From NCBI GenBank assembly GCA_035566895.1, contig DATMQA010000088.1:1-64000 (forward strand): a stretch of 64,000 nt of DNA. The letters run 5' to 3'. The position numbers and the translations under genes were made by a program. Of the stretch, positions 21,550 through 61,950 are shown in pieces. Below the pieces are notes generated by a model. The model was not told the origin of the DNA, searched no databases, and saw nothing but the letters and a program-made list of their open reading frames with translations. The DNA comes from Candidatus Binatia bacterium. Its GTDB lineage: Bacteria > Verrucomicrobiota > Verrucomicrobiia > Limisphaerales > UBA8199. Each line of letters starts with the position of its first letter. The first letter of the stretch is position 1.

Positions 21550-21699
21550 GTGTCAGCTCTTTCGTTTTGTTTTCGCAATGTTCGCTCCGAGACGGTCTCC
21601 CGGCAACGCCAAATGCGCATCGGGCGAGAAGGGATTCGGGTGTCACGTGGTCAGAGTGAAATGGCATGGAAACATCTCCCGAAAAAAAATTTAGTGTTA

Positions 21700-22215
21700 A
21701 GAAATGTTAAGGAGTGTTAAGAAGTGCTAAGGCCGCGATAGCGGGATGGGGTGGACGGGGCGGCGGCGAGGAGCGGGAAGGTGGCACGGGGAGCTGGGCT
21801 TCATGTTTGCTTGTACGGTTTTCTGTTTTCCGGGCCGCTCGCTGTTGGCGACAGTGGCCTCTACTATGTATTGTGCGACAAAGGTTGTCTGACGGCGGAC
21901 ATGTTTGCTGGTACGAATTTCTGTTTTCGGGGCCGGCCGCAGTTGGCGACACTGCCCTCTACTATATATGGCGCGACGAAAGTAGTCTGACGGCGGACAT
22001 CGGAGCGCCAAGATTGTAGCAGCCGACGCCAGGAGGCTTTGATCTCTCGGCCAATGGACAAAGGATCAGAGCCTCCTGGCGTCTGGCTGCTACGGCAGGG
22101 GGTTAGTTGGCTTTTCCTTCCGGCAGGCGGAGCAGCGGACGAGTGGACTTGGTGAACGCGGAACCGCACCGGACCGAGGCGCGGCAAGGAGATGTGGGGC
22201 CGGTGTGGCGCAGGA
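21700..22215. repeat. Copy A of a ~0.5 kb segmental direct repeat (contains two ~100-bp tandem units at about 21795-22003 and an 80-nt hairpin at 22010-22095)
   Basis: Long blocks are near-identical to 23025-23693 (read by eye). Contains an internal tandem duplication of a ~100-bp unit. Confidence 0.8.
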
Positions 22216-23007: not shown

Positions 23008-23024
23008 CTGGGAAAAAATTAGTG

Positions 23025-23693
23025 TCAAAAAAGCTTAGAAACCGCTAAAAAGGTTAAAGCTGATGGCGGCTTAATGGATGGGGGCGGCGGCGGGCAGAGC
23101 GGCGAGGCTGCGGCGAGGGAGTGTGGGTGCCCGGGGTGGTATGGAGGGTTGGGCTTTCATCTTTGCTGATACGAATTTCTATCTTCGGGGCTGGCCGCGG
23201 TTGGCGACACTGCCCTCTACTTTATATGGCGCGACGATAGTAGTCTGACGGCGGACAGGGCCGCCGGGATGATATTATCTGCCCAGACTGGAGCACGTTT
23301 TTTATCAGGCCGACGCGGTGGTGCATTGGGAGATGAGCGTTGCTCACCGCGATACCGGCTGGCTCACGCGGACGTTTCATTGCCCTTTTCGTGAGATATG
23401 GTGCACACGGGCGCGCGCTGCACGAAGAGCAAGGACCCGGCCGCATCAATGGTGCGGCGTCCGATCAAAAGGACCATCGAAGCGCCAAGATCGTAGCAGC
23501 CGACGCCAGGAGGCTCTGATCATTTGTTCGATTGACCGAGAGATCAGAGCCTCCTGGCGTCGGCTGCGACGGGAGGGGGGTGGTTGGCTTTTCCTTCCGG
23601 CAGACGGAGCAGGAGGCGAGTGGACCTGGTGAACGCGGAACCGGACCGGGCCGAGGTGCGGCAAGGAGATGTGGGGCCGGGGTGGTTACCGGA
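23025..23693. repeat. Copy B of the segmental direct repeat (one ~100-bp unit, a ~210-bp unique insert, and a perfect-stem hairpin at 23493-23570); it ends exactly at the ggt stop codon
   Basis: Matches 21700-22215. The hairpin GTAGCAGCCGACGCCAGGAGGCTCTGATC-N20-GATCAGAGCCTCCTGGCGTCGGCTGCGAC has a 23-bp perfect core. Confidence 0.8.
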
Positions 23694-25620: not shown

Positions 25621-25697
25621 TTGGTCCCAATGGCGCGTCCGGCAGGACTTGAACCTGCAACCTTCTGATCCGAAGTCAGAAGCTCTATCCAATTGAG
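25621..25697 (-). tRNA. tRNA-Arg (anticodon TCG)
   Basis: Reverse complement GCGTCCGTAGCTCAATTGGATAGAGCTTCTGACTTCGGATCAGAAGGTTGCAGGTTCAAGTCCTGCCGGACGCGCCA folds as a cloverleaf with anticodon loop CTTCGGA. CCA is encoded. Confidence 0.9.
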
Positions 25698-26178
25698 CTA
25701 CGGACGCACGATTGTCGTTGAATGCTACGCTATCCTGACCAAGCACGAAGTCAACGCTGCATCGTTTCGGAGGCGTGACCAGTGACAAGTGGCGAGTGAG
25801 AGGCTTCTCGCTCGCGCGGTGCTTCTCCCTAAGTGCCTCGCGCCGGGAAGGTTGTACCTGGCTTTCTTGACAACCCGGCGAGTTATGGGATTGGTGGTAC
25901 AGCAGTTGAAGCAGCCTAAGTTGGCTTTCCTTCCTGAAGGCCAATGCGGGGGACCCAAAGTCCTCGAACAGGTGTTTGGGGAAGGGGCGAAAGGCCGCGG
26001 GTAACCGCGGTTAAGGTCACTTCCTGGACCGAGCCCGTCAGCTAACCTCGCCGGCAATGGGAAGGGCGATCCTCTAGGGTCCCGCTCGGGCGGGTTCCCA
26101 CGTTCACCCAGTCAAGAAAGCGCGCTGCGCCTTGCGCGGCGATACCGCAGCGGTGTGCAGCCACATCGGAGAATCGGT

Positions 26179-29236: not shown

Positions 29237-29294
29237 GTAGTAATCAGTAATCAGTAATCAGCAATCAGTAGTCACTAATCAGTAGTCAGTAATG
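29237..29294. repeat. Heptanucleotide tandem repeat (GTAATCA)x8 with point variants
   Basis: gtagtaatcagtaatcagtaatcagcaatcagtagtcactaatcagtagtcagtaatga; lies immediately upstream (promoter side) of the 28092..29225 gene. Confidence 0.85.
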
Positions 29295-30037: not shown

Positions 30038-30135
30038 AAGAGTTAAATGGGTCAAAAGAGTTAACTGAGTTAAATGAGGGACACGGCTTTTGAGAACCCA
30101 CAAGAAATTTGCGCATGCTGCGCAAACTTTGAAGG
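30038..30135. repeat. Intergenic element, copy A: 9-10-bp GAGTTAAAT/GTTAAAAGG-type tandem units plus conserved tail containing palindrome TTTGCGCA-TGC-TGCGCAAA
   Basis: Shares unit and tail with 31166-31250 and 31993-32105. Confidence 0.75.
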
Positions 30136-30175
30136 AAGCAGTACGAAGAACGGCTGACGAGAAAGCGAAATTCCT

Positions 30176-31165: not shown

Positions 31166-31250
31166 ATGAGTTAAATGGGCTAACTGAGTTAAATGAGGAA
31201 CACGGCACCGGCCCGTTTGCGGATGTTGCTGCGCCCGCAGGGCGCTCTTC
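31166..31250. repeat. Intergenic element, copy B (GAGTTAAATGGGCTAACTGAGTTAAATGAGGAACACGGC...)
   Basis: About 90% identical to copy A over the array. Overlaps the annotated 5' end of ORF 31193..31957, so the true start is probably downstream. Confidence 0.7.
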
Positions 31251-31957: not shown

Positions 31958-31992
31958 CCACGGATGAACACAGCGCGGCAAAGCCGCAACCA

Positions 31993-32105
31993 AAGAGTTA
32001 AAAAGGTTAAAAAGGTTAGAAAAGTTAAATGGGTTAAAAGAGTTAGATCCGGGACGCACGTTTGCGCACGCACAAGAAGTTTGATAAAGCTGCGCAAACT
32101 AAAAG
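31993..32105. repeat. Intergenic element, copy C (AGTTAAAAAGGTTAAAAAGGTTAGAAAAGTTAAATGGGTTAAAAGAGTTAGATCC plus tail with TTTGCGCA...TGCGCAAACT)
   Basis: Same unit and tail as copies A and B. Confidence 0.75.
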
Positions 32106-32169
32106 TGACGCAGAAGCGCTTTTCTGCCTTTTTGATTCTCCTATCTCCCGTCTCTCGAGATTCGGCCTG

Positions 32170-32913
32170 CTACTTGCTCGCATCCGGGGCGGGCGCCTGC
32201 TTTTGCTGGACCGGCCACTCGAAGCTGAGTTTGACCGGGTCGCCGGTACTGAGTAAACCGATTAACACTGGCGCTTCCACTTTGAAGTCGCTCATCTTGA
32301 GAGTAATGGAACCCGAAATCTTGAGCTTTTTATCCCCCAGGGGCAATACGTTGACCGGCATGGAAATGGAATTGGTGACGCCAGCGACGGCCAATTCGCC
32401 TTTGGAATCGAACACATAAGGCAGGTCTTTGCTCCGGGGCGACTCTTTGAGCACGAGCTCGATTGAGTGATAGGTGATGCGCGGGTTGGCAGCGCTTTTC
32501 ATCTTGTCATACATCACCTCGTCCATCTTGTCGCTGTAATGGGAGCCGTCTTTTTCAACGCTCTTGAGCCCCCGCACGGGAATGTAAGCTTTCACTTCGG
32601 CCTGGACTTTGCCGGGCGTGGCTGCCTGGCCGGGTTCGGTGGGAAAACCGGGCCCGACTTCGATGGACCCGCCGATGATATGGCCCTCGACCTGCCAATC
32701 GTGAATGGTAGAAGTGCCTTCGATGCGCACCTTCATGTCCGGACCCGACTTTGCATCGAAACGCGTTAAGCCAGCCGCGACGACGGGTGGAGGATTGGTT
32801 TTTTCAAGGTCGGCCAGCGAAGGCTCCTCGTGCTTCGGAGGTTTCGCGCAACCCGCCGCAAGTGCCAGTACGAAGATGGCCATGGCTGCCCTGCCGACCC
32901 TCTGAAATTCCAT
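32170..32913 (-). CDS. YceI-like family lipoprotein (paralog 1)
   Basis: Start at ATG 32913 (MEFQRVGRAAMAIFVLALAAGC lipobox). YceI-like beta-barrel pattern. About 85% identical to the adjacent paralog. Confidence 0.8.
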   Translation of the reverse strand: MEFQRVGRAAMAIFVLALAAGCAKPPKHEEPSLADLEKTNPPPVVAAGLTRFDAKSGPDMKVRIEGTSTIHDWQVEGHIIGGSIEVGPGFPTEPGQAATPGKVQAEVKAYIPVRGLKSVEKDGSHYSDKMDEVMYDKMKSAANPRITYHSIELVLKESPRSKDLPYVFDSKGELAVAGVTNSISMPVNVLPLGDKKLKISGSITLKMSDFKVEAPVLIGLLSTGDPVKLSFEWPVQQKQAPAPDASK

Positions 32914-32990: not shown

Positions 32991-33668
32991 TTATTTGCTG
33001 GCGTCCGCGGCAGGCGCCTGCTTCTGCTGGACCGGCCACTCGAAGCTGAGTTTGACGGGGTCGCCGGTGCTCAAAATTCCGATCAGCACGGGCGCTTCCA
33101 CCTTGAAATCGCTCATCTTGAGAGTAGTGGAACCGGAAATCTTCAGCTTTTTATCCCCCAGGGGCAATACGTTGACCGGCATGGAAATGGTATTGGTGAC
33201 TCCGGCTACGGCCAGTTCGCCCTTGGAATCAAACACGTAAGGCAGATCCTTGCTCTTCGGCGCCTCTTTAAGCACAAGTTCGGTCGAATGATAAGTGATG
33301 CGCGGGTTGGCAGCGCTTTTCATCTTGTCGTACATCACCTCGTCCATCTTGTCGCTGTAATGGGAGCCGTCTTTTTCGACGCTCTTGAGCACCCGCACCG
33401 GAATGTAGGCCTTTACTTCGGCCTGGACCTTGCCGGGCGTGACGGTCTGGCCCGGCTCCGTGGGAAAACCCGGCCCCACTTCGATGGACCCGCCGATGAT
33501 GTGGCCCTCGACCTGCCAATCGTGAATGGTAGAAGTGCCTTCGATGCGCACCTTCATGTCCGGACCCGACTTCGCGTCGAAACGTGTCGTCGGCTCGGCG
33601 GCCCGCGACAGAGAGGCCAGGGCAAGACCCAGGACGATTTGGCCAGCGAGTAAATTTCGTGTTTTCAT
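32991..33668 (-). CDS. YceI-like family protein (paralog 2, signal peptide)
   Basis: MKTRNLLAGQIVLGLALASLSRA signal peptide. Tandem duplicate of 32170..32913. Confidence 0.8.
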   Translation of the reverse strand: MKTRNLLAGQIVLGLALASLSRAAEPTTRFDAKSGPDMKVRIEGTSTIHDWQVEGHIIGGSIEVGPGFPTEPGQTVTPGKVQAEVKAYIPVRVLKSVEKDGSHYSDKMDEVMYDKMKSAANPRITYHSTELVLKEAPKSKDLPYVFDSKGELAVAGVTNTISMPVNVLPLGDKKLKISGSTTLKMSDFKVEAPVLIGILSTGDPVKLSFEWPVQQKQAPAADASK

Positions 33669-38191: not shown

Positions 38192-38224
38192 AGCATACAT
38201 CGATACGCCGGCCTGCGGACTGAC

Positions 38225-38347
38225 GCGCGAAGCGTTTGGAGTGCGTGCGCTCTGCGCCGCTTTGTTATGTTCGAGCTGAGTGGTTACATTTAGCTGCTCG
38301 AGAGTCCGAGAACGGCGCAGAGCGCACGCACTCCAAACGCTTCGCGC
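38225..38347. repeat. Perfect 35-bp inverted repeat (stem) with 53-nt loop, followed by T-rich tract
   Basis: Left arm GCGCGAAGCGTTTGGAGTGCGTGCGCTCTGCGCCG (38225-38259). Exact reverse complement at 38313-38347. Confidence 0.9.
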
Positions 38348-38425
38348 CTCTCGTTCAATGATTTTGCGCTTTTTTCTGTAACAATTGCCCCCTCTCCTGC
38401 GTATTACCTGCAGGGTCATCGTGTT

Positions 38426-52711: not shown

Positions 52712-54184
52712 CTAGGAACCTCGTTTCGCGCCGGGGTCCATTTTCACGGCCTCCGGAGACGCGCCTCCTTTGAACGACAAGGCCACGGCGGCTTTGGTTA
52801 GATCCCCGCCGTCAATTTTGATGCCCCCGCTGCCGGCTCCTTCCACTTGCAGGAAGACCGCCGCCCCCGCAAGCACTCGCGCGCCGGTCAACAGCACGTC
52901 GCGCGCGTCGATGAAACGCAGCAGCGACTCGGCCTCCGGATGTCCTTGCGCGCTCAACCCGTTGATGGCGGCATCACTGACGTGGTCCAACACTACCGCG
53001 GGCCGCAAATCCGGATTGGCCATCTCGAAGCGCACGTTCTGCAGCGTTAGGCCGTGCACGTTGCGCGCGAACAGGGCGTAAGCGGGCGGCACGCCGATGG
53101 CGTAATACTCCCCGGCAATTTTCGGCACGTCCCTCACGGCGCCCTGCTCGGTTGTGCCGCCGCCGGGGAAGGTGACATGTGACATTGTTCATCACCAGAT
53201 CCGAGAAGGAAATGTTCTCGAACCGTGAGCGGGACCGCACCGCATTTTGATCGGGCAACCATAGGTTCCATAGATGAGGCAATTCGAGACGGTAATGTTC
53301 TCGGCCTCGCCCCCGCCGAAACGGAAGACCGACCAGCGCGTCGTGAACGAGCAATTGGTTACCGTGACAAACTTGCAACTGCCGAACAGCGCGCACGCGT
53401 CGTCCTGGCACTCCACATCGCAATTGCTGACATGGACGTATTGGCTGCTGATGAAATGAAACCCGTCGTTGTTGTGGTTGACCCGGTTGTGAATGTGGAT
53501 GCCTTCCAGCTTCACATATTTGCTTTGGATAATCCGGACCGAGTGAAACGCGCTCTCCGTCAGAAAAATGTCACGCACGGTGAGGTTCTGGCATTGATGG
53601 AACAGCAGGTGATACGGACGGTGGCTGCCCCCGATGCCGGCGGGAGGTGGCGCACCGCGGGCAGGGCTGCGAAATTGCGCGCCCTGGCCGTCAATTGTTC
53701 CAGGCCCCTCGATGACGACATTCTGGAGGCCGACACCGAAGATCAAACCGACGTTCAAACCGACGTTCCCGTCCTCCAGCGTCGAGTCTCCGTGAAGCGG
53801 GATGGCCTCGGCCGCATGGTACTGGTTCCCATCAGCGCTGCCCAACAGCTTGCCCTGCGCCGCAAGGTGCAGTTTGATATTGCTCTTCATCTCGATCGTG
53901 CCGATGACAAACACGCCGGCGGGCACAAGAACCGTCCCGCCCTGGTCCTGGTGGCAGGCATCAATCGCGGCCTGAACGGCGGCTGTGTCCAGCGAGCAAA
54001 TCTGGAACAGGACGTGCGAGAGGCTTATCGTCTGGGGGCCAATTCCTACTTCACCAAGCCCAGTGCCTTGAACGACCTGATGGACATGCTCCGCGTTACG
54101 TATGAATACTGGTCGCGGTGCGAGTGTCCTCCCGTGCCATGCTGTTGAGCTGCCGAAAAAACCTTCGGCGTCGTCCGGGATCAC
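52712..54184 (-). pseudogene. Glycoside hydrolase family 28 (polygalacturonase-like), frameshifted near 53186-53192 and lacking a signal peptide
   Basis: N-part ORF 53192..54184 has GH28 motifs 'QDQGGTVLVPAGVF', 'NNDGFHFISS', 'CQDDACALFGS'. The C-terminal continuation is in another frame (52712..53185). The first ~65 codons are antisense to a receiver-gene fragment. Confidence 0.65.
53990..54148 (+). pseudogene. C-terminal fragment of a response-regulator receiver gene ('...EQDVREAYRLGANSYFTKPSALNDLMDMLRVTYEYWSRCECPPVPCC*')
   Basis: Matches the C-terminus of the intact receiver at 60483..61022 (ISRAYKLGANSYVTKPSSF...FW). No receiver N-terminus upstream. Confidence 0.5.
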
Positions 54185-55554: not shown

Positions 55555-55640
55555 TGGTGGTAGGTGATGGATTCGAACCATCGAAGGCGTGAGCCAGCAG
55601 ATTTACAGTCTGCCCCCGTTGGCCACTTGGGTAACCTACC
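55555..55640 (-). tRNA. tRNA-Tyr (anticodon GTA), type II long variable arm
   Basis: Reverse complement GGTAGGTTACCCAAGTGGCCAACGGGGGCAGACTGTAAATCTGCTGGCTCACGCCTTCGATGGTTCGAATCCATCACCTACCACCA. Anticodon loop CTGTAAA. T-loop TTCGAAT. Confidence 0.9.
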
Positions 55641-55995
55641 GCCGGGTAGTGGATAGTTGCCAGTGGATAGTGAGCAGCCGGAGTTCTCCAGCCTGACGCG
55701 ACCATCAAAGACAACCAGCGCGAGCGGTGAATTTAGCCGAAGCGGTGGGCTTGTCAATGCGGGGGTATCACACTAAACTAGCGGTCAGTCGTGGACGAGG
55801 CGCATGGCGGCTCTCATTGGCACCCCACTTTAGTGGGGTGTCAGAGCCGGGCTGGCCAAGGGAACCGTTTCAACGGTTTCTCGCGGCGCCGCTAAACCGT
55901 TGAAACGGTTTCGCTGACCTCCGCCGATGCGATACACCCCGCTGAAGCGGGGTGTTAATGAGAGTGGGACGGTGAGTCCAGGCCAGGTCTTTTTT

Positions 55996-60482: not shown

Positions 60483-61022
60483 CTAACTCTCGGGGTGCGC
60501 TTTGGCGAGCGCATCCTCTGCCTGGCGGGGAGCCGGCGCGGGGCGGGATGCCTCGGGAGCCTGGCTCAACCGCAACCAAAAGTCGCTGATGGCCTGGCTG
60601 ACTTCGGCTAACCGAGCGAAGGAGCTGGGTTTGGTGACGTAGGAATTGGCCCCGAGTTTATAGGCACGGCTAATGTCCTCGGCCGCGCCCGAAGCGGTGA
60701 GCACGACGACGCGCAAGCTCTTAAAGGTGGGCTGGGAGCGAATCCATTGGAGCACCTCGAACCCATCCATCATCCCAGGCATTCTGAGGTCGAGGAGCAC
60801 CAGGGCGGGGAGGGGAAACTCGGCGCGGTTGGCGTAGGGGCCGAACCCACTAAGGTAGGCGACGGCTTCTCCGCCGCTTCTGACCACCTGAAGAGGGTTG
60901 GTGATATTAGCCTGGTCGAAGGCACAGCGAAGCAGGGCCACGTCATCCTCGGAGTCCTCGACAAGGAGAAGGAGAGCTTGAGCGCGCATATCGGCGTGAA
61001 ATGATTCGGCAAGATGCGTCAC
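60483..61022 (-). CDS. Single-domain response regulator (receiver only)
   Basis: 'LLLVEDSEDD', 'LVLLDLRMPGMMDGFEVL', 'VVVLTAS', 'KLGANSYVTKP'. Confidence 0.85.
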   Translation of the reverse strand: MTHLAESFHADMRAQALLLLVEDSEDDVALLRCAFDQANITNPLQVVRSGGEAVAYLSGFGPYANRAEFPLPALVLLDLRMPGMMDGFEVLQWIRSQPTFKSLRVVVLTASGAAEDISRAYKLGANSYVTKPSSFARLAEVSQAISDFWLRLSQAPEASRPAPAPRQAEDALAKAHPES

Positions 61023-61082
61023 GCAGGAGGTTGGGGCTATGGGGTGTCCGCCCCAGCGCCGCGCGCTTGGGGGCGGCGGAAG

Positions 61083-61232
61083 GCTTAAAAAGGTTAAAAG
61101 GGTTAAAAAGGTTACAAGGTTACAAGAGTTAAAAGAGTTAGAAGGGTTAAACGGGTTAAGAAGGTCAAAGAGGTTACGAGGGTTACAAAGTTACAAGGTT
61201 ACGAGGGTTACAAAGTTACAAGGTTACAAGGG
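61083..61232. repeat. Long tandem array (about 17 units) of 9-bp GGTTA(A/C)AAG-type repeats (same unit family as the 30038/31166/31993 elements)
   Basis: aggcttaaaaaggttaaaagggttaaaaaggttacaaggttacaagagttaaaagagttagaagggttaaacgggttaagaaggtcaaagaggttacgagggttacaaagttacaaggttacgagggttacaaagttacaaggttacaagggtt. Confidence 0.85.
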
Positions 61233-61376
61233 TTCCCTTGGGAAGGGGGAGTCACCAATCGGTCCTTCACCCCATTGAGCAAACCACCCCAAGCGCTCCA
61301 TGTTAGGTTCGGGGGGGCGAGCCTCTGGTTCGTCCCGGCGCGCCAAAAGCCGGAATTAATTACAGTGGACTGGAGG

Positions 61377-61679
61377 TCAGGCCGCTTCGCGGACCATGTC
61401 CATGCTGCCGAATGGATTGGGGACGCGCACGGTGCATTCAGGGTCGTCGAACCATTCACCATCCACGATGAAGCGGTAGGTGTGTTTGCCTGGGCGCAGT
61501 TGGATCGAGGTTGTCCAAATGCCGTCCTTGTCCTTGCGCATCAGGATGCTGTGCTTGCGCCATTCGGTAAAGTCGCCAGCCAGGAGAACGCTGATGGCGT
61601 TGGGAGCAAAAAAGCGAAAAGTTTGGTTCCGGGAAGTTGAGGTTGGTTTGGTCATAAGCATGAAATTTTTCTCGAACAT
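61377..61679 (-). CDS. Glycogen-binding (CBM48 / AMPK-beta GBD-like) domain protein
   Basis: 'FRFFAPNAISVLLAGDFTEW...GIWTTSIQLRPGKHTYRFIVDGEWFDDP'. Confidence 0.7.
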   Translation of the reverse strand: MFEKNFMLMTKPTSTSRNQTFRFFAPNAISVLLAGDFTEWRKHSILMRKDKDGIWTTSIQLRPGKHTYRFIVDGEWFDDPECTVRVPNPFGSMDMVREAA

Positions 61680-61751
61680 CGCCTAGGGCATTTTTGGAGT
61701 CAACGGTAGGCATATACCCCAGGACAATTCCTCGGGAGTTTTGGCTATTTC

Positions 61752-61950
61752 AAGCAGCCCGGCATGGGCGGACACGCGCACCGCGACCAGTATTCATAAG
61801 TGCCGCGCAGGATCTCCATCAGGTCGTTCAACGCAGTGGGCTTGGTGAAGTAGGAATTGGCGCCCAGGCGATAAGCCTCGCACACATCTCTTTCCAGGTT
61901 TAGGATCGTCCTCAATCAGGAGCATGCTCAACCGTCCCAACTTCATCACC
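61752..61950 (-). pseudogene. Internally deleted response-regulator receiver remnant (beta1 'MLLIEDDPKPGKR' joined by a frameshift to alpha5 '...EAYRLGANSYFTKPTALNDLMEILRGTYEYWSRCACPPMPGCLK*')
   Basis: Both ends match the receiver family at 60483..61022 and the fragment at 53990..54148. The middle ~90 residues are absent. Confidence 0.5.

Follow-up and report, generated by a model that had tools for sequence, protein, structure and literature searches.

We consider a tandem array of short purine-rich units, each with the core GTTA(A/C)AA followed by one or two purines, that lies at positions 61084-61231 on the plus strand of a 64,000-nucleotide stretch of DNA. This stretch, which we call the window, is positions 1 to 64,000 of contig DATMQA010000088.1 (assembly GCA_035566895.1), deposited as Candidatus Binatia bacterium and placed by GTDB in the Verrucomicrobiota. 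The reading that we favor, at somewhat under even confidence, takes the array to be a lone arm, much expanded, of an intergenic repeat dispersed through the Verrucomicrobiota, and its units to be sites for a protein. We hold the descriptive part of this reading with high confidence. It comprises the membership of the array in the repeat family, the architecture of the arms, their intergenic location, the outcome of a test on paired arms, a 25-bp duplication inside the array, a spacer that is 25 nt longer in a sister assembly, receiver orthologues that have no array, and the lack of replication or DNA-binding genes as neighbors. The mechanism, in which the units are occupied by a protein, is argued by analogy and is put forward more tentatively.

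Anchored on the core, 17 contiguous head-to-tail units are counted between 61084 and 61231, with unit-to-unit periods of 9, 9, 9, 8, 9, 9, 9, 9, 9, 9, 9, 8, 8, 9, 8 and 8 bp (mean 8.7 bp). Tandem Repeats Finder reports a period of 9 with 16.8 copies, together with higher-order periods of 18, 25 and 62. The original prediction, which had been made from the letters of the window, placed about 17 units at 61083-61232 between a response-regulator gene and a CBM48 gene, and it held that the array generates a spurious open reading frame (ORF) of the 'KKVKKV' type. The unit count stands, the location is confirmed by the Pfam matches of both flanking genes, and the ORF exists at 61039-61278 (+), reads '...KKVKRVKKVTRLQ...', is derived from the repeat and has no Pfam match. 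In a genome of about 60% G+C the array is an AT-rich island. A two-unit pattern has 11 matches in the window where 0.84 are expected, with no shuffle reaching 11, and chains of at least three GTTA at a spacing of 8-10 bp are observed 4 times as against 0.1 in shuffles. The array is not an assembly artefact of a single data set, because a contig from the independent assembly Logan SRR7101595 agrees with the window at 100% identity over 2803 nt, running into the array. Against Rfam 15, neither the window nor four typical loci of the family reach the gathering score, the sole match being at chance level (E 6.6), and a scan for promoters and terminators around the array finds nothing.

From the end that faces the receiver gene, the array begins with a canonical-like arm at 61084-61127 (+), CTTAAAAAG GTTAAAAGG GTTAAAAAG GTTACAAG GTTACAAGA. 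Compared with the consensus of the 84 arms described below, it has the A-type units first and the C-type units after, as the family does; these five left units resemble the canonical arm plus one extra A-type unit, and their outer end faces the receiver in the same orientation as start-proximal arms elsewhere. Five degenerate units follow (units 6-10, 61128-61172 (+); GTTAAAAGA GTTAGAAGG GTTAAACGG GTTAAGAAG GTCAAAGAG), which look like older copies. Units 11-16, at 61173-61222 (+), consist of two perfect tandem copies of a three-unit block of 25 bp, GTTACGAGG GTTACAAA GTTACAAG; the identical 25-mers lie at 61173-61197 and 61198-61222, and each copy reads GTTACGAGGGTTACAAAGTTACAAG. The last unit, GTTACAAGG at 61223-61231 (+), forms the inner end. 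With its head-to-tail units and an internal higher-order duplication (25 bp, twice), the array has the form of a minisatellite, and its layout indicates growth at the inner end by slippage or unequal exchange.

The length of the array is probably polymorphic, as a comparison with a sister assembly suggests. On the JGI contig 3300050821 (144,296 nt) the receiver protein is identical to that of the window apart from V/M at a GTG start, and the CBM48 and sulfite-reductase-like proteins are identical. The gap between the histidine kinase and CBM48 genes is 466 nt in both assemblies and the gap between the receiver and reductase genes is 208 nt in both; the gap between the CBM48 and receiver genes, in which the array lies, is 379 nt in the JGI contig and 354 nt in the window. 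This difference of +25 nt, read from gene coordinates, is exactly one three-unit block, so that the variation in unit number that the original prediction had proposed to look for is now probable. The duplication at 61173-61222 is the array's youngest part and likely where the 25-nt difference lies. The Logan contig ends inside this same duplication, as would be expected where a de Bruijn graph loops.

These observations may also be read as those of a functionless minisatellite, an AT-rich and slippage-prone motif that drifts in copy number and owes its family likeness to copying (by mobility or gene conversion) and not to selection. The perfect duplication beside degenerate older units, the length difference between assemblies and a receiver orthologue without an array all suit this account, and so do unrelated short tandem arrays elsewhere in the genome, e.g., about eight copies of AGTAATC at 29239-29293, in the intergenic DNA between an alpha/beta-hydrolase gene and a DUF6483 gene. 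We nevertheless consider it unlikely on account of the relatives of the array in other genomes, to which we return after the relatives in the same contig.

Seven arrays of GTTA(A/C)AA-type units are present in about 69 kb of the contig, all of them intergenic. At 21696-21732 (+), four 10-bp units of GTTAAG type head a duplicated 0.5-kb non-coding block, and at 23024-23059 (+) a degenerate array between convergent genes heads the second copy of that block. The array at 30042-30077 (+) has a conserved tail after it and stands upstream of a minus-strand DUF6483 gene, at a distance of 26 nt; its near copy at 31170-31196 (+) overlaps the start of a CBM9 gene; and the array at 31997-32050 (+), with six units and the tail, lies between convergent genes. 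The seventh array is just past the end of the window and is seen in the Logan contig. It had been predicted that the array at 61 kb is of the same unit family as the elements at 30-32 kb and that it lacks their conserved tail. Both points are borne out: blastn aligns the array with 31992-32047 at 84-86% identity, the array at 32.0 kb being the closest relative of its outer part, and the tail is not present at 61 kb.

The tail common to the 30.0- and 32.0-kb arrays occupies 30078-30140 and 32050-32110, and its start is found also at 31197-31206. It reads GGGAC.C...CACAAGAARTTTG-N5-GCTGCGCAAACT, with an internal inverted repeat TTTGCGCA/TGCGCAAA. The 0.5-kb duplicate (21780-22208 and 23135-23685, 87-92% identity) starts with a GTTA-type array and a G-rich stretch. 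Within it are a tandem repeat of 98 bp (21802-22000) and a palindrome about 78 bp long (22016-22093; 23492-23571). This block could be a small RNA or a regulatory module.

Non-coding DNA holds most of the units in the window, with 24 units in 10.4 kb as compared to 19 units in 53.6 kb of coding DNA. The purine-rich strand is the plus strand in all seven arrays, and GTTA[AC]A in the intergenic DNA of the window occurs 23 times on the plus strand and once on the minus strand. This shared polarity is not significant because local duplications leave about four independent events: the 21.7- and 23.0-kb arrays head two copies of one block, and the 30.0-, 31.2- and 32.0-kb arrays are copies of each other. 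Relative to the flanking genes, the purine strand is the sense strand in some cases and the antisense strand in others. The genes beside the siblings encode a GFO/IDH/MocA oxidoreductase, an RCC1-repeat protein, a gamma-glutamyltranspeptidase, DUF6483, CBM9 and YceI-like proteins, with no replicative or mobile genes among them. The YceI-like lipoprotein genes are themselves tandem duplicates (32171-32763 and 32992-33584, 89.7% identity over 593 nt).

We turn our attention to other genomes, which were scanned with the exact pattern GTTAAAARRGTTAAAARRGTTA, one genome per species. At least 114 loci match, where by our own composition estimate well under one match is expected in GC-rich genomes. 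Among the matches listed, 44 are in named Verrucomicrobiota (Chthoniobacterales, Ca. Udaeobacter, 'Spartobacteria', Verrucomicrobiae and Limisphaerales), and many of the others are in Bacteroidota, mostly Chitinophagaceae; the rest, from AT-rich genomes, appear to be due to chance or to coding repeats. A scan of the viral database IMG/VR gives 59 matches, many in giant-virus bins, which we judge probably uninformative. The NCBI label 'Candidatus Binatia bacterium' may be wrong, in that the repeat family and some of the named receiver homologues are of the Verrucomicrobiota. The family appears to be undescribed so far, as neither its sequence string nor its topic leads to a published description in the searchable literature, which is incomplete.

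The Verrucomicrobiota loci contain 84 arms, 46 with four units and 31 with three. Unit 1 is GTTAAAA in 66 of the 84 arms and unit 2 in 57, unit 3 is GTTACA(A/T) in 58, and unit 4 is GTTAAAA or GTTACAA, with periods of 9, 9 and 8. The canonical arm, of about 33 bp, is thus GTTAAAA-RR GTTAAAA-RR GTTACA(A/T)-N GTTA(A/C)AA. Arms usually come as inverted pairs with their inner ends facing each other across a spacer of 10-69 nt that is unrelated in sequence from one element to the next. The outer, GTTAAAA end is toward the gene in every case, whatever the orientation of the neighbors (--, ++, -+ or +-). Such inverted arms are present in Chthoniobacterales loci and are absent at the 61-kb array and in its genome.

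The placement of the arms relative to genes is close. Intergenic DNA contains 88 of 93 arms. The distance from the outer end to a stop codon is 0-20 nt, and among the 32 upstream regions with a unit there are 19 in which the outer end is 5-8 nt from the start codon, with no Shine-Dalgarno sequence between. The arm ends 5-8 nt before the start in a number of metagenome-assembled genomes (MAGs) of Udaeobacter and Chthoniobacterales (loci L003, L011, L045, L046, L090, L095, L096, L108, L114 and others), and once a 33-bp arm ends 1 nt before the start codon. In these compact genomes arms begin 0-3 nt past many stop codons, and an element can fill an entire intergenic spacer. Promoters of the sigma-70, sigma-54, extracytoplasmic function and Bacteroidetes -33/-7 types were compared by eye with the start-proximal arms and none fits consistently: units 1 and 3 are offset by 18 bp, which gives a 15-bp spacer, TAnnnT is found in only about half of the arms and GG-N10-GC is absent. 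Resemblances to BoxA, the T7 epsilon enhancer, PUF elements, the LytTR 9-mer and the 16S 3' region were taken to be chance effects of low complexity and were not counted.

At eight orthologous Udaeobacter-like loci the start-proximal arm is identical in seven, including 12 nt that lie outside the search pattern, and the coding flanks diverge. One sequence with the same orthologous spacer and arm as the seven Udaeobacter-like MAGs is binned as Alphaproteobacteria (L009, JBLMXD010000095.1), an assignment that is probably a binning error. It is here that the functionless minisatellite meets its difficulties. The order and spacing of the four-unit arm are fixed across many species and loci, an arm is kept at one orthologous site in eight species, and the outer end is precisely placed by start and stop codons in compact genomes. 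Furthermore, direct repeats that would mark a target-site duplication are not found at the flanks of 23 elements, and together with the unconserved spacers this makes the copy-and-paste of whole elements unlikely. Long arrays are rare in the other genomes. Eight or nine perfect GTTAAAAGG units occur in three loci (L049, L078 and L091), and in a fourth, L087, a canonical arm has expanded at its inner end through a duplicated three-unit block, independently of the array in the window but with a similar result. A recurrent DNA-binding gene beside these long arrays was not found.

The next question is whether it is the structure or the sequence of the arms that is conserved. Paired arms fold into imperfect stems of 25-35 bp (-12 to -39 kcal/mol), with paired cores and bulged linkers. 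These stems speak for an account in which the family is a secondary-structure element like the repetitive extragenic palindromes (REPs) and bacterial interspersed mosaic elements (BIMEs), whose inverted pairs would form hairpins in RNA or cruciforms in DNA and act as terminators, mRNA stabilizers or RNase III sites, the 61-kb array being a functionless half without its hairpin. The arm pairs fill spacers of co-directional and convergent genes, and REPs too are intergenic, multi-copy and often paired (PMC3733652). In a chimera test, the alignment of each left arm with the reverse complement of its own right arm was set against that with the right arms of 18 unrelated elements. Real pairs score 15.4 and chimeras 16.5 (mean z -0.24, Wilcoxon p 0.23). 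Since the complementarity of an arm with its own partner is no higher than with unrelated elements, what is conserved is the sequence, order and spacing of the units and not a hairpin, and conserved unit sequence is what would be expected of a motif that is read by a trans-acting factor.

Several further observations stand against such a secondary-structure role. Co-directional elements show no consistent stability advantage for the sense strand, divergent gene pairs are not avoided, and single arms are not palindromes. The minimum free energy (MFE) structure of the 61-kb array is weaker than those of dinucleotide shuffles on both strands (z +2.2 and +3.0), Rfam gives no match, and opposite-strand units are nearly absent from the intergenic DNA of this genome (the 23 to 1 above). 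We therefore regard this account as quite unlikely. The comparison with REP/BIME elements of Proteobacteria is instructive all the same. They, including the GTAG- and CGTC-tagged REPs (PMC3733652), are likewise short, strictly intergenic and often in inverted pairs with variable linkers, they occur in hundreds of copies, and roles at transcript ends and in protein binding have been proposed for them. The multi-copy, extragenic distribution is thus shared with the present arms. The REP unit, however, is a 20-40-bp palindrome with a GTAG or CGTC tag, whereas the present arm is an untagged, non-palindromic tandem array of 8-9-bp units, with ends that read GTTAAAA...TTTTAAC, and its pairs have no element-specific complementarity.

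The most likely reader of the units, as judged from their sequence, is a protein whose copies sit next to each other along duplex DNA. Given the mean period of 8.7 bp, each site would be rotated by about -62 degrees from the one before on a 10.5-bp helix, an arrangement that suits a protein filament winding round the DNA better than a planar bend or same-face iterons. Ribbon-helix-helix (RHH) proteins bind side by side on sub-sites of 7-8 bp, as in the omega heptads of pSM19035, the ParG boxes and the 8-bp metboxes of MetJ, with one small dimer per unit, cooperative binding and sites that rotate round the helix. The present arms, in which six to seven base pairs would be recognized every 8-9 bp, have the same sub-site geometry of contiguous 7-9-bp units in direct and inverted orientation and in variable copy number. 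They differ in their distribution, since RHH arrays are operators or centromeres at one or a few loci by the gene of the binder and the present arrays are dispersed over the chromosome.

Other known systems share one or another property with the family. The nearest single-locus analogue, an AT-rich array of variable copy number upstream of a promoter, is found in the TTTTGAT heptads of the Vibrio cholerae ctxAB promoter, which occur in 3-8 copies, vary between strains, recruit regulators and tune expression (bioRxiv 10.1101/2021.05.14.444153). That array has a single locus, a 7-bp unit and known binders, whereas here we have 17 units and a genome-wide family that also abuts stop codons. The BOX elements of pneumococcus (PMC3049150) and the mycobacterial interspersed repetitive units typed by their variable numbers of tandem repeats (MIRU-VNTR) are, like the present family, dispersed and intergenic with a module number that varies by locus and strain, but their modules are 40-100 bp instead of 8-9 bp, and sequence and host phylum are unrelated. 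In behavior, the family would be closest, by analogy, to dispersed REP-like repeats, with arms built on the sub-site geometry of RHH operators and modules that can amplify in the manner of BOX or MIRU.

We now consider the genes that flank the array. The stand-alone receiver gene at 60483-61022 (-) matches Pfam Response_reg (PF00072) only, over residues 19-140 of 179 aa. The ATG at 60989 is probably its true start, which gives the 168 aa of NCBI HWX20247.1; this placement follows from an upstream block that is common to four aligned receiver genes, and the array spans roughly -95 to -243 from this ATG. On the other side is the CBM48/AMPK1_CBM gene at 61377-61679 (-) (Pfam CBM_48/AMPK1_CBM), the stop codon of which is 145 nt from the inner end of the array; the other neighbors are a sulfite/nitrite reductase and a GH42 fragment. 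A metagenome scan with the CBM48 protein returns only distant homologues (at most 50% identity), none with an array. To the right of the CBM48 gene, a receiver-domain remnant at 61750-61901 is 85.6% identical, in inverted orientation, to 53998-54148, which sits in an intact gene at 53.2-54.2 kb.

A conserved promoter-like block occupies 60990-61075 (-) and separates the array from the start of the receiver gene; it reads GGGGC-N4-CACCCCATAGCC ... GTGACGCA-N2-TTGC ... N19 ... ATG. The alignment compares the window gene with two orthologues, L140 (70% identity) and L141 (75%), and a paralogue from the same population, L139, and all four have the block GGGGC-N4-CACCCCAT(A)GCC ... GTGAC.CA..TTGC ... 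about 19 nt ... ATG (the copies other than that of the window are at L139:2900-3030, L140:1-90 and L141:560-640). Its elements, in order, are a GGGGC-N4-CCCC hairpin, ATAGCC and, about 19 nt ahead of the ATG, GTGAC.CA..TTGC, and the block fits neither the sigma-70 nor the sigma-54 consensus. A 21-nt inverted repeat brackets the array, its left arm at 61026-61046 being part of the CACCCCATAGCC motif and its right arm at 61268-61288 reading CACCCCATTGAGC...; the right arm repeats, in the opposite orientation, the beginning of the receiver block, with the motif CACCCCAT(A/T)G. The array starts about 10 nt upstream of the block. Upstream of L141 and L139 the block is present and the array is absent, and the sequence of L140 breaks off 18 nt beyond the block on its upstream side. 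It follows that the array is peculiar to its lineage, added upstream of the promoter-like region and outside it.

The original prediction had likened the array to iterons, the sites of an initiator at a replication origin, and had taken the neighboring response regulator as a possible binder, which would make the array its operator. Tandem direct repeats, an AT-rich island and the adjoining receiver gene are what speaks for this account. Iterons are about 17-22 bp long, helically phased, beside an initiator gene and DnaA boxes, and at one locus per replicon. The array shares with them only the tandem direct repeats in AT-rich non-coding DNA: its units are 8-9 bp where about 20 bp would be expected, the neighborhood has no rep, dnaA or par genes, and many such arrays are dispersed over each contig and genome. 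The link to the receiver fares no better, as this protein has no DNA-binding domain to serve as output, its orthologue L141 and paralogue L139 have no arrays, and other arrays of the family stand beside unrelated genes. A check for similar arrays on plasmids had also been suggested; blastn against plasmids gave no match, a negative that is weakened by a low-complexity filter which may mask the query. As a whole, the iteron or operator account is scarcely tenable.

A different role is suggested by the strand of the array that would be transcribed together with the CBM48 gene. In this account the array is an insulator of the Rho utilization (rut) kind, in which Rho would load on read-through RNA from the CBM48 gene and terminate before the receiver promoter, and it is compatible with the reading that we favor. 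The usual criteria for rut sites are at least 80 nt of untranslated, unstructured RNA in which C is much commoner than G. The minus-strand RNA of the array agrees with these in composition and structure. It is about 150 nt long, untranslated and unpaired in the centroid structure (MFE -6.3 kcal/mol, z +3.0), contains 41% U, 28% C, 22% A and 8% G (C/G 3.5) with 25 YC dimers, and lies past the CBM48 stop codon and ahead of the promoter-like block. About half of the siblings (at 23.0 kb, at 32.0 kb and in the Logan contig), however, present the G/A-rich strand to the upstream transcript, so that Rho loading cannot be the general role of the family, and in the relatives both strands occur within every element. 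We consider this role improbable.

Relics of mobile DNA or of recombination sites are another conceivable origin. [quoted passage not shown] In favor are the inverted 33-bp arms with internal sub-repeats in the relatives, and the likeness of the unit to the core sites of tyrosine recombinases, GTTRRRY and the XerD arm GTTAAAT. In addition, the 8-unit GTTAAAAGG array of L049 (1490-1566) is directly upstream of an XerC/D-like tyrosine recombinase gene, an adjacency that is a single case. The elements differ from MITEs in having no target-site duplications and no conserved interior, the spacers of 10-69 nt being unrelated, and no transposase lies between distant arms. They also differ from integron attC sites, which have the order R''(RYYYAAC)-L''...L'-R'(GTTRRRY), whereas here the order is the inverse, GTTRRRR...YYYYAAC, with four units per arm at 9, 9 and 8 bp. 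Arrays of attC accompany promoterless cassettes, and the neighbors here are housekeeping genes in all orientations. Taken together, these differences make such an origin highly improbable.

We return to the favored reading, in which the array is an expanded arm and its units are protein sites. According to this model, the units would be adjacent sites for a sequence-specific protein that lines up along duplex DNA, marking or insulating the boundaries of genes. The arm beside the receiver promoter block would have gained one- and three-unit blocks at its inner end, through replication slippage or unequal exchange, and the outcome would be a minisatellite that differs in length between cells. 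More units may load more of the putative factor, and changes in length may alter the distance and the helical phase between the upstream DNA and the receiver promoter. It may also be that the expansion has next to no effect on fitness.

A number of points weigh against this model. No DNA-binding gene is consistently beside the long arrays, and no candidate gene for the binding protein was found next to the arrays. A center-to-center spacing of 8-9 bp is tight for most DNA-binding domains. The arrays in this genome are one-armed and of varying gene orientation, so the architecture seen in Chthoniobacterales may not transfer directly. The conservation of the arm at orthologous spacers is biased, because the loci were fetched by an exact pattern. 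The cores are shared by all arms and let any G-arm pair with any T-arm, so the chimera test leaves a possible role for imperfect hairpins. Finally, the 25-nt difference rests on gene coordinates, and short-read assemblers can miscount tandem blocks.

A wider proposal can be made, which we offer as speculation and consider unlikely in its entirety. The 33-bp arms would be an undescribed gene-boundary element of the whole phylum Verrucomicrobiota (with look-alikes in Chitinophagaceae), read by an abundant polymerizing protein on 8-9-bp sub-sites, and capping start and stop codons as transcription insulators or boundary marks. In this view the 17 units at 61 kb would be a contingency-like expansion that tunes the receiver gene.

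Apart from the repeat family, the window contains a cyclic di-AMP (ydaO/yuaA) riboswitch at 25903-26071 (57 bits), upstream of a gene that starts near 26005, and tRNAs at 25634-25707 and 55558-55640. Long imperfect palindromes, found as self-inverted matches of 75-77% identity, lie at 38222-38350 and 55811-55964, the latter just upstream of ffh.

Taken alone, the array at 61 kb is a modest finding, probably a hypervariable minisatellite upstream of a signaling gene in an uncultured soil bacterium. The arm motif may serve as an annotation marker that prevents spurious 'KKVKKV' ORF calls. The fixed four-unit arms at gene boundaries suggest an unrecognized cis-signal in abundant soil bacteria, and finding its reader would help to explain how the Verrucomicrobiota set the limits of their transcription units.

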